Assembly: GCF_003334765.1 (NCBI RefSeq)
Contig: NZ_QOWT01000118.1
DNA: 491 nt
Source: Escherichia coli
Lineage (GTDB): Bacteria > Pseudomonadota > Gammaproteobacteria > Enterobacterales > Enterobacteriaceae
Strand: one strand, 5' to 3'
The translations under genes and the position numbers were made by a program. The notes under the pieces are model-generated. The model did no database searches, was not told where the DNA came from, and saw only the letters and a list, made by a program, of their open reading frames with translations. Below are positions 1 through 491 of the stretch, in pieces. The stretch's first letter is position 1. Each line of letters begins with the position of its first letter.

Positions 1-491
1 GAGCAGGCTGAAGCCCTCCGTCAGAAAGACCAGCAACTGAGTCTGGTTGAAGAGACGGAGGCCTTCCTGCGCTCTGCACTGGCACGTGCCGAAGAAAAGA
101 TCGAAGAAGATGAACGGGAAATAGAGCATCTGCGGGCTCAGATAGAAAAACTGCGCCGGATGCTGTTCGGAACCCGTTCTGAAAAACTGCGTCGTGAGGT
201 TGAACAGGCTGAAGCCCTGCTGAAACAACGCGAGCAGGAAAGCGATCGTTACAGTGGGCGTGAGGATGACCCGCTGGTTCCCCGCCAGTTGCGACAGTCG
301 CGCCATCGTCGTCCGTTACCGGCACATCTCCCCCGTGAAATATACCGCCTGGAGCCTGAAGAAAGCTGTTGCCCGGAGTGTGGCGGTGAGCTGGATTATC
401 TGGGGGAAGTCAGCGCAGAACAACTGGAACTGGTGAGCAGCGCCCTGAAAGTGATCCGCACAGAACGGGTAAAAAAAGCCTGTACAAAATG
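1..491 (+). CDS. tnpC: IS66-family transposase (TnpC/ORF3-like), N-terminal region; partial at both ends (start codon upstream of window, catalytic DDE region downstream)
   Basis: Seen in sequence: frame 1 is open across the entire window (163 codons, no stop), while frames 2 and 3 hit stops early (TGA at 38-40 and 9-11). Translation contains RRMLFGTRSEKL (nt 154-189), RRPLPAHLPRE (nt 307-339) and CCPEC-x33-CTK[C] (nt 367-491). Established knowledge: this combination and order (leucine zipper, then MLFGxxSEK, then PLPxxLPRE, then CxxC zinc finger) is the conserved N-terminal layout of IS66-family transposases. Not in the ORF track only because it has no stop within the window. Confidence 0.85.
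16..165 (+). other. Coiled-coil / leucine-zipper segment of the transposase (heptad-spaced hydrophobic residues)
   Basis: Seen in sequence: hydrophobic residues at window-frame positions L6, L13, L27, I34, I41, I48, L55 (7-residue spacing, one skip at position 20), with additional d-like positions L44 and L51. The intervening residues are strongly charged (E/K/R-rich), typical of a dimerisation coiled coil. Established knowledge: IS66 transposases carry an N-terminal leucine-zipper domain (Pfam family name LZ_Tnp_IS66, from memory). Confidence 0.6.
367..491 (+). other. Zinc-ribbon / zinc-finger motif CxxC-x33-CxxC of the IS66 transposase (last Cys codon truncated by window end)
   Basis: Seen in sequence: TGT TGC CCG GAG TGT at 367-381 encodes C-C-P-E-C; TGT ACA AAA TG at 481-491 encodes C-T-K and the first two bases of a probable Cys codon (TGY). 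The spacing between the two Cys pairs is exactly 33 codons (nt 382-480). Established knowledge: matches the zinc-finger domain found in IS66 transposases (Pfam family name zf-IS66, from memory). Confidence 0.7.

Follow-up and report, generated by a model that had tools for sequence, protein, structure and literature searches.

The window, which is the whole stretch of Escherichia coli DNA analysed here (491 nucleotides), is an intact piece of the tnpC gene of ISEc43, a very common and already catalogued element of the IS66 family. Taken as a whole, the analysis very probably means that residues 69-130 of ISEc43 TnpC, a DDE transposase, correspond to the domain known as LZ_Tnp_IS66, which would consist of two conserved blocks separated by a variable linker and would belong to a modular N-terminal arm, in which a role can be proposed by inference for each of the two motifs.

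The identity of the window has been established from its reading frame and from its matches in complete genomes. Frame +1 is open over all 491 nt, giving 163 codons with zero stops in translation, and several stops occur in each of the remaining sense frames as well as in two of the three antisense frames. When the window was compared by megablast with complete E. coli genomes, it was found with 100% identity within genes annotated as 'IS66-like element ISEc43 family transposase'. Members of this family were counted at 8,358 places, spread over 2,936 of the 5,426 complete E. coli genomes and located on chromosomes as well as on plasmids. In the O104:H4 chromosome, the window (positions 1-491, + strand) comprises codons 18-180 plus 2 nt of the 537-codon tnpC gene (WP_000080172.1), at a CDS offset of 51 nt and with neither stop nor frameshift, and lies downstream of tnpA and tnpB. 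According to the RefSeq annotation, the tnpA-tnpB-tnpC organisation is shared by the reference elements and by the loci whose window is identical. The assignment to the IS66 family, made in an earlier note on this DNA, agrees with the location of the window inside an annotated ISEc43 transposase, and no other family fitting better was found. Some database proteins join the IS66 TnpB domain (PF05717) to the N-terminal domains of TnpC; these are probably frameshifted or read-through gene calls over the 30-nt gap between tnpB and tnpC, and not natural fusions.

Two short motifs are encoded within this frame. Motif 1, RRMLFGTRSEKL, lies at nt 154-189 on the + strand (residues 69-80 of the full-length protein) and has the core L-x-R-x-x-[FY]-G-x-[RKS]-S-E-[KR], while motif 2, RRPLPAHLPRE, lies at nt 307-339 on the same strand (residues 120-130) with the core R-x-x-[LIF]-P-x-x-L-P-R. 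Both match the translation exactly, and the letters, positions and order given in the earlier note are therefore accurate. The same note had placed the two motifs between a coiled coil and a zinc finger, and this arrangement is also found, with a heptad-repeat helix before motif 1 and a CxxC...CxxC finger after motif 2.

The conservation of both motifs was assessed on 110 full-length proteins, 35-50% identical to ISEc43, which were drawn from the representatives of clusters at 50% identity by means of an exhaustive search. A word-indexed search with the window peptide had yielded almost only close relatives and gene fragments, and was replaced by the exhaustive search with the full-length protein; to prevent circularity, the homologues were picked on the similarity of the entire protein, to which the DDE domain contributes most. 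The resulting set covers the closer members of the family (E<1e-80), out of ~4,300 clusters at E<=1e-30. Among these 110 homologues, the frequencies at motif 1 were 73% for L68, 68% for R70, 96% for F/Y73, 91% for G74, 87% for S77, 95% for E78 and 77% for K/R79, and those at motif 2 were 88% for R120, 91% for L/I/F123, 91% for P124, 87% for L127, 77% for P128 and 86% for R129. The core signatures [FY]-G-x-x-S-E-[KR] and R-x-x-[LIF]-P-x-x-L-P-R are thus conserved at 77-96% per position. Since M71, T75, L80, P122 and E130 vary among the homologues, the signatures are to be understood as these cores and not as the full 11- and 12-residue motifs. The mean frequency of the top residue reached 0.66-0.69 in the motif cores, compared with 0.21 in the coiled coil and 0.27 in the linker. 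Moreover, R70, G74, S77, E78, R120, P122, P124, L127, P128 and R129 are invariant across IS66, ISEc8, ISEc22, ISCro1, ISKox1, ISEc23 and ISEc43. The F-G, S-E-K and P-L-P...L-P-R-E blocks, whose conservation among IS66 transposases had been anticipated, are indeed conserved in the alignment of the 110 homologues and of the named insertion sequences.

The matches are also far above chance when judged against composition-matched shuffles of the 110 homologues, in which the core expression of motif 1 was found in 34 of 22,000 (0.15%) and that of motif 2 in 8 of 22,000 (0.04%). Motif 1 precedes motif 2 in all 54 homologues that match both expressions (54/54), and the median distance between them is 53 aa, against 50 in the window. 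A third conserved block, Q-L-x-L, is carried by most family members some 11 residues downstream of the [FY]G in motif 1, with Q86 at 76%, L87 at 54% and L89 at 76% in the 110 homologues. Lying between the two motifs, this block had not been listed in the first reading of the DNA, and it is degenerate in ISEc43 (QAEALL, nt 205-222, full-length residues 86-91). The two motifs and Q-L-x-L are the sole conserved features of an IS66 TnpC N-terminus that otherwise drifts freely.

Searches against domain collections led to the same family. In the Pfam search, the window was found to carry LZ_Tnp_IS66 followed by zf-IS66, which is the order typical of IS66 TnpC. The first of these, PF13007, matches residues 43-113 of the window peptide (nt 127-339, + strand; E=3.4e-13, 50.5 bits, model positions 1-69 of 71), and the second, PF13005, matches residues 121-162 (nt 361-486, + strand; E=3.4e-11, 43.8 bits) and is cut by the end of the window. 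Three Cys codons of the finger are found at nt 370-372, 379-381 and 481-483, and the fourth is cut after 'tg'; the corresponding cysteines (141, 144, 178 and 181) are 91-98% conserved in the 110 homologues. As regards rival families, the next Pfam matches of the window peptide were generic coiled-coil families at E>=0.003, and the sole NCBIfam model found in the window was that of the IS66 transposase, NF033517 (transpos_IS66), which starts at motif 2. The full-length protein adds DDE_Tnp_IS66 (PF03050, E=1.2e-95) and DDE_Tnp_IS66_C (PF13817, E=8e-16), both located outside the window.

The contribution of the motifs to the PF13007 match was resolved by scrambling. Shuffling only the 23 motif residues brought the score from 50.5 bits to no match at E<=10, whereas shuffling the rest of the domain with the motifs kept still left 25.6 bits (E=2e-5). 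Because the match is abolished in the first case and survives in the second, its signal is carried by the two motifs, which by this profile comparison are its conserved ends. The earlier note had called them the most diagnostic part of the translation for family assignment, and this proves correct for the N-terminal stretch, to which the statement has to be restricted: zf-IS66 gives an independent, IS66-specific match of similar strength, and the blocks of the DDE domain are better conserved, which makes both at least as diagnostic as the motifs. Ranked over the entire protein in the 110 homologues, the top blocks are CWAHARR, EHLPLYR and GKKNYVF, all in the DDE domain and outside the window, with CWAHARR as the most conserved 7-mer (0.90), and LPAHLPR ranks eighth. 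In the ISfinder scheme, the IS66 family is reportedly defined by the DDE_Tnp_IS66 catalytic domain with its CwAHxR motif.

The conservation described above is exerted at the level of the protein. For the whole window, dN/dS was 0.07 both against ISEc23 and against ISKox1, and within the motifs the comparison with ISKox1 gave 0 nonsynonymous and 12 synonymous changes (7 in motif 1 and 5 in motif 2), with dS about 1.4. These ratios point to strong purifying selection on the protein encoded by this class of sequences. The motifs might also have been kept by an element acting at the nucleotide level, for instance a structured RNA, a regulatory site inside the gene or an antisense gene overlapping it, as could be suggested by antisense frame -3, which has just one stop in the window and stays open for 186 codons in tnpC (L001:3450-5063), and by a 13-nt inverted repeat (nt 10-22/54-66) together with some short direct repeats. 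Such an origin is extremely improbable, since synonymous sites are saturated while the amino acids are kept, and since the repeats are lineage-specific. For the same reason of saturation between relatives, there is no sign of an overlapping antisense gene. The Rfam search of the window gave no match at E<=1, no promoter-like or terminator-like sites were found in it, and, along with the saturated dS at conserved protein, these results led to the rejection of any nucleotide-level or antisense element.

The repeats themselves are of a modest kind. The inverted repeat is 92% complementary with a 31-nt loop, falls in the region coding for the coiled coil, is devoid of a terminator-like tail and is likely due to chance. 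A 17-nt direct repeat (nt 1-17 and 202-218) encodes EQAEAL twice, and a 14-nt one (nt 145-158 and 181-194) encodes the EKLRR that flanks the core of motif 1 on both sides (EKLRR-MLFGTRS-EKLRR); both are specific to the lineage and neither is family-wide. The direct repeats probably represent coiled-coil sequence of low complexity or else small duplications within the gene.

Protein-level conservation of the sequence class does not by itself establish the state of the copy from which the window was taken, and the genomic copies of ISEc43 have to be considered. One of them is a plasmid copy with an identical window, a 2,541-bp element (L011:1253-3793) with ends GTAAGCG...CGCTTAC, in which the window corresponds to element nt 949-1439. 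This copy is flanked on both sides by a perfect 8-bp target duplication, GACCATTC, and splits a DUF1281 gene. A recent insertion of ISEc43 with an 8-bp repeat has also been described (PMC6531882). High copy number, fresh target duplications and purifying selection are indirect evidence that elements with exactly the sequence of the window have transposed.

Five loci whose window is 100% identical were sampled: tnpC is truncated by ISEc45 at two of them, tnpB is frameshifted at one, and all genes are intact at the other two. In the two truncated cases, strains 219 (L008:2450-5261) and FORC_069 (L009:2150-4891), tnpC ends after 1,425 nt and the IS110-like gene of ISEc45 lies about 250 bp downstream. 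These two strains are unrelated, the arrangement looks like one inherited or site-specific insertion of ISEc45 into ISEc43, and the window is still 100% identical in both. In the O104:H4 copy, tnpB is annotated as a pseudogene owing to a frameshift, and an 8-bp target duplication is absent at its ends (CTCTATGG vs GACTATTA). This copy (L001:2050-7250) adjoins the gene of the Pic autotransporter (pic), amid a mosaic of pieces from IS66, IS3 and IS110 elements in which several additional ends of the GTAAGCG type occur.

The window could accordingly come from a defective relic, with an intact N-terminus, a tnpC truncated downstream or a broken tnpB, and motifs that merely reflect a recent inactivation. 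This is a real possibility, although somewhat less probable than its opposite: it fits the two of five identical-window loci truncated by ISEc45, the one with a frameshifted tnpB, the fact that only two retain all three ORFs intact, and the location of the O104:H4 copy within an IS-fragment patch with no matching 8-bp duplication. On the other hand, there are intact copies flanked by fresh target duplications, purifying selection clearly acts on this class of sequences, the identity of the sequence would be the same in either case, and the window alone cannot reveal which copy it came from. The claim of intactness made in the earlier note stands, both for the motifs and for the whole window, which run without stop or frameshift in frame +1. 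Its further suggestion of a functional rather than decayed transposase N-terminus holds with the limit that it set itself, at least over this stretch: the sequence belongs to an undecayed class, as reflected by the dN/dS of 0.07, but the function of this particular copy does not follow. An intact window is not proof of a functional gene, because the identical 491 nt also sit in copies of tnpC truncated by ISEc45.

The structural context of the motifs was derived by modelling the full-length TnpC with AlphaFold from 101 sequences (pLDDT 92.9), the model being read in terms of pLDDT and secondary structure. The N-terminus is predicted to start with a long helix (residues 3-73), the C-terminal 56 residues of which (18-73) are encoded at nt 1-168 on the + strand, with pLDDT 85-95. 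Its heptad a/d positions are 70% hydrophobic, compared with 14% elsewhere, a value reached by 0/2000 shuffles. The helix breaks at residues 74-76 (Gly74-Arg76), where pLDDT falls to about 56, and is followed by a second helix (residues 77-98, nt 178-243, + strand; pLDDT 67-74) and by the linker (nt 244-309, + strand; pLDDT 48-79, conservation 0.27), which according to charge counts has an acidic part and then a basic run, RQLRQSRHRR (nt 283-312). Residues 99-120 are of low confidence, and residues 121-130 are extended with pLDDT 97, residues 121-128 having no regular secondary structure. Motif 2 runs into a strand at 129-134, two beta-hairpins occupy residues 147-178, and the strands and hairpins bear Cys 141, 144, 178 and 181. 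It should be mentioned that the label of PF13007 in Pfam, 'leucine zipper / homeodomain', is a name rather than a tested function, and that in the ISEc43 model most of the heptad coiled coil precedes the segment matched by PF13007.

On this basis, the N-terminus of TnpC may be regarded as a modular arm, in which a coiled-coil helix of ~70 residues, probably a multimerisation domain, would be followed by motif 1, the second helix, a flexible linker first acidic and then basic, motif 2, a Cys4 zinc ribbon, an HTH and finally the DDE core. The near-invariant Gly of motif 1 would break the long helix, and its Ser-Glu-Lys/Arg would cap and start the next one, so that the motif could act as a hinge or docking point. 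As it is near-invariant and yet modelled with low confidence (about 56) in the monomer, motif 1 may fold solely against a partner, which could be another TnpC, TnpA, TnpB or DNA. Motif 2, in turn, would be a rigid, proline-rich extended segment with flanking arginines, packed on the folded body and fixing the zinc ribbon relative to it, and the basic run that precedes it is a plausible DNA-contacting arm for the terminal inverted repeats of the element. Both the hinge and cap role of motif 1 and the arm role of motif 2 are inferred from the model and from conservation. In the literature, no experimental, structural or mutational study of the IS66 TnpC N-terminus was found, and a sequence search of the PDB with TnpC gave chance matches only (cathepsin G, E about 0.8).

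A self-fusion of two copies of residues 1-190 was also modelled with AlphaFold, and gave a pTM of 0.43, with motif 1 not becoming ordered (pLDDT 52-77), from an alignment shallower than that of the full-length model. In the same fusion, motif 2 had pLDDT values of 84 and about 67-91, compared with 97 in the full-length model, a difference which is confounded by the shallower alignment and only weakly suggests that the order of motif 2 depends on the catalytic body. A more specific proposal for motif 1 is that of a docking site, induced by the partner, for the accessory TnpB or TnpA or for the replisome clamp. It is unlikely; if true, however, it would explain why IS66 needs three proteins and why an invariant block is unstructured in the monomer model.

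The host beta sliding clamp deserves separate consideration: Gomez et al. 2014 (PMC3971601) demonstrated in vitro binding of the E. coli beta clamp by peptides taken from two parts of IS66-family TnpC, and placed the clamp motif upstream or downstream of the 'LZ' domain. The conserved N-terminal blocks might then be docking sites for the clamp (DnaN), coupling transposition to replication, and not a hinge and an arm. In favour of this, apart from the in vitro binding, the window encodes QLSLV at nt 34-48 on the + strand (residues 29-33), a literal match to the clamp consensus QL[SD]LF / QL[SD]L[FL], and most of the family has the Q-L-x-L block ~11 residues past the [FY]G of motif 1. Nevertheless, this reading is very unlikely for the flagged motifs, neither of which resembles QL[SD]LF, the clamp-like motifs being separate sequences, and the family QLxL is degenerate in ISEc43. 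QLSLV belongs to the coiled coil, for which a helix is confidently predicted, and its L30 and V33 fall on heptad a/d positions, whereas clamp ligands bind in a flexible, extended form; the match may be coincidental. It was also considered that an upstream QLSLV could substitute for the degenerate downstream QLxL, which proved unsupported, as the presence of the upstream motif was not associated with the absence of the downstream one (4/59 vs 5/43, Fisher p=0.50). The modular arm, with a hinge at motif 1 and a rigid segment at motif 2, is preferred over the clamp as an account of the two blocks.

As regards its significance, the finding is correct but already known, the element being catalogued and abundant and the motifs being already captured by PF13007, and its value is little beyond that of a correct annotation. 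In practical terms, [FY]GxxSE[KR] and Rxx[LIF]PxxLPR can be used as dependable short markers for the N-termini of IS66-family TnpC in fragments, bearing in mind that a copy is not shown to function by an intact N-terminal fragment. The role of the invariant residues and of the IS66 N-terminal arm is a small question in transposon biology.

Finally, the window may be compared with the named members of the family. ISEc43, the ISfinder name used in RefSeq, is 100% identical over the 491 nt, with no difference in the window; it is a three-ORF element (tnpA/tnpB/tnpC) with GTAAGCG-type ends and an 8-bp target duplication, some of its genomic copies being truncated. The closest relatives have both motifs identical: the TnpC of ISEc23 is 91% identical overall and 97% over the first ~195 aa, and that of ISKox1 is 81% and 84% identical, respectively. 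At the nucleotide level, the comparison of ISEc23 with ISEc43 (L006:613-3144 vs L011:1253-3793) in steps of 100 nt gave 37-68% identity in the initial 400 nt, which hold the left end and tnpA, 90-98% at 500-1700 (tnpB and the 5' half of tnpC, with the window included), 67-88% at 1700-2300, which includes part of the DDE region, and 100% at the right end. Such mosaicism suggests recombination between IS66-family elements.

More distant members share the order of domains with ISEc43, but are only 40-64% identical overall and 35-60% over the first ~195 aa, and their coiled coil and linker are essentially unalignable with those of ISEc43, the lengths of the coiled coil being different. Among them, the founding IS66 of Agrobacterium tumefaciens (represented by the copy in A. 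tumefaciens pAt15955, located through PMC6778807) has the motif cores RRELYGTRSERK and RKPFPEHLPRE, ISEc8 and ISEc22 have RRMNFGSRSEKV and RKPFPESLPRD, and ISCro1 has QRMQFGKSSEKL and RKPLPASLPRE. Beyond the family, the closest solved fold to the body of TnpC is that of the ISCth4 transposase (PDB 6xgx and 6xg8; Foldseek E=2.4e-8 over 382 aligned columns), which belongs to a different family, IS256, and is only 13-15% identical. This likeness between the modelled body and a solved structure suggests a DDE architecture like that of ISCth4, and hints at a structural kinship between IS66 and IS256 that is invisible to sequence searches.
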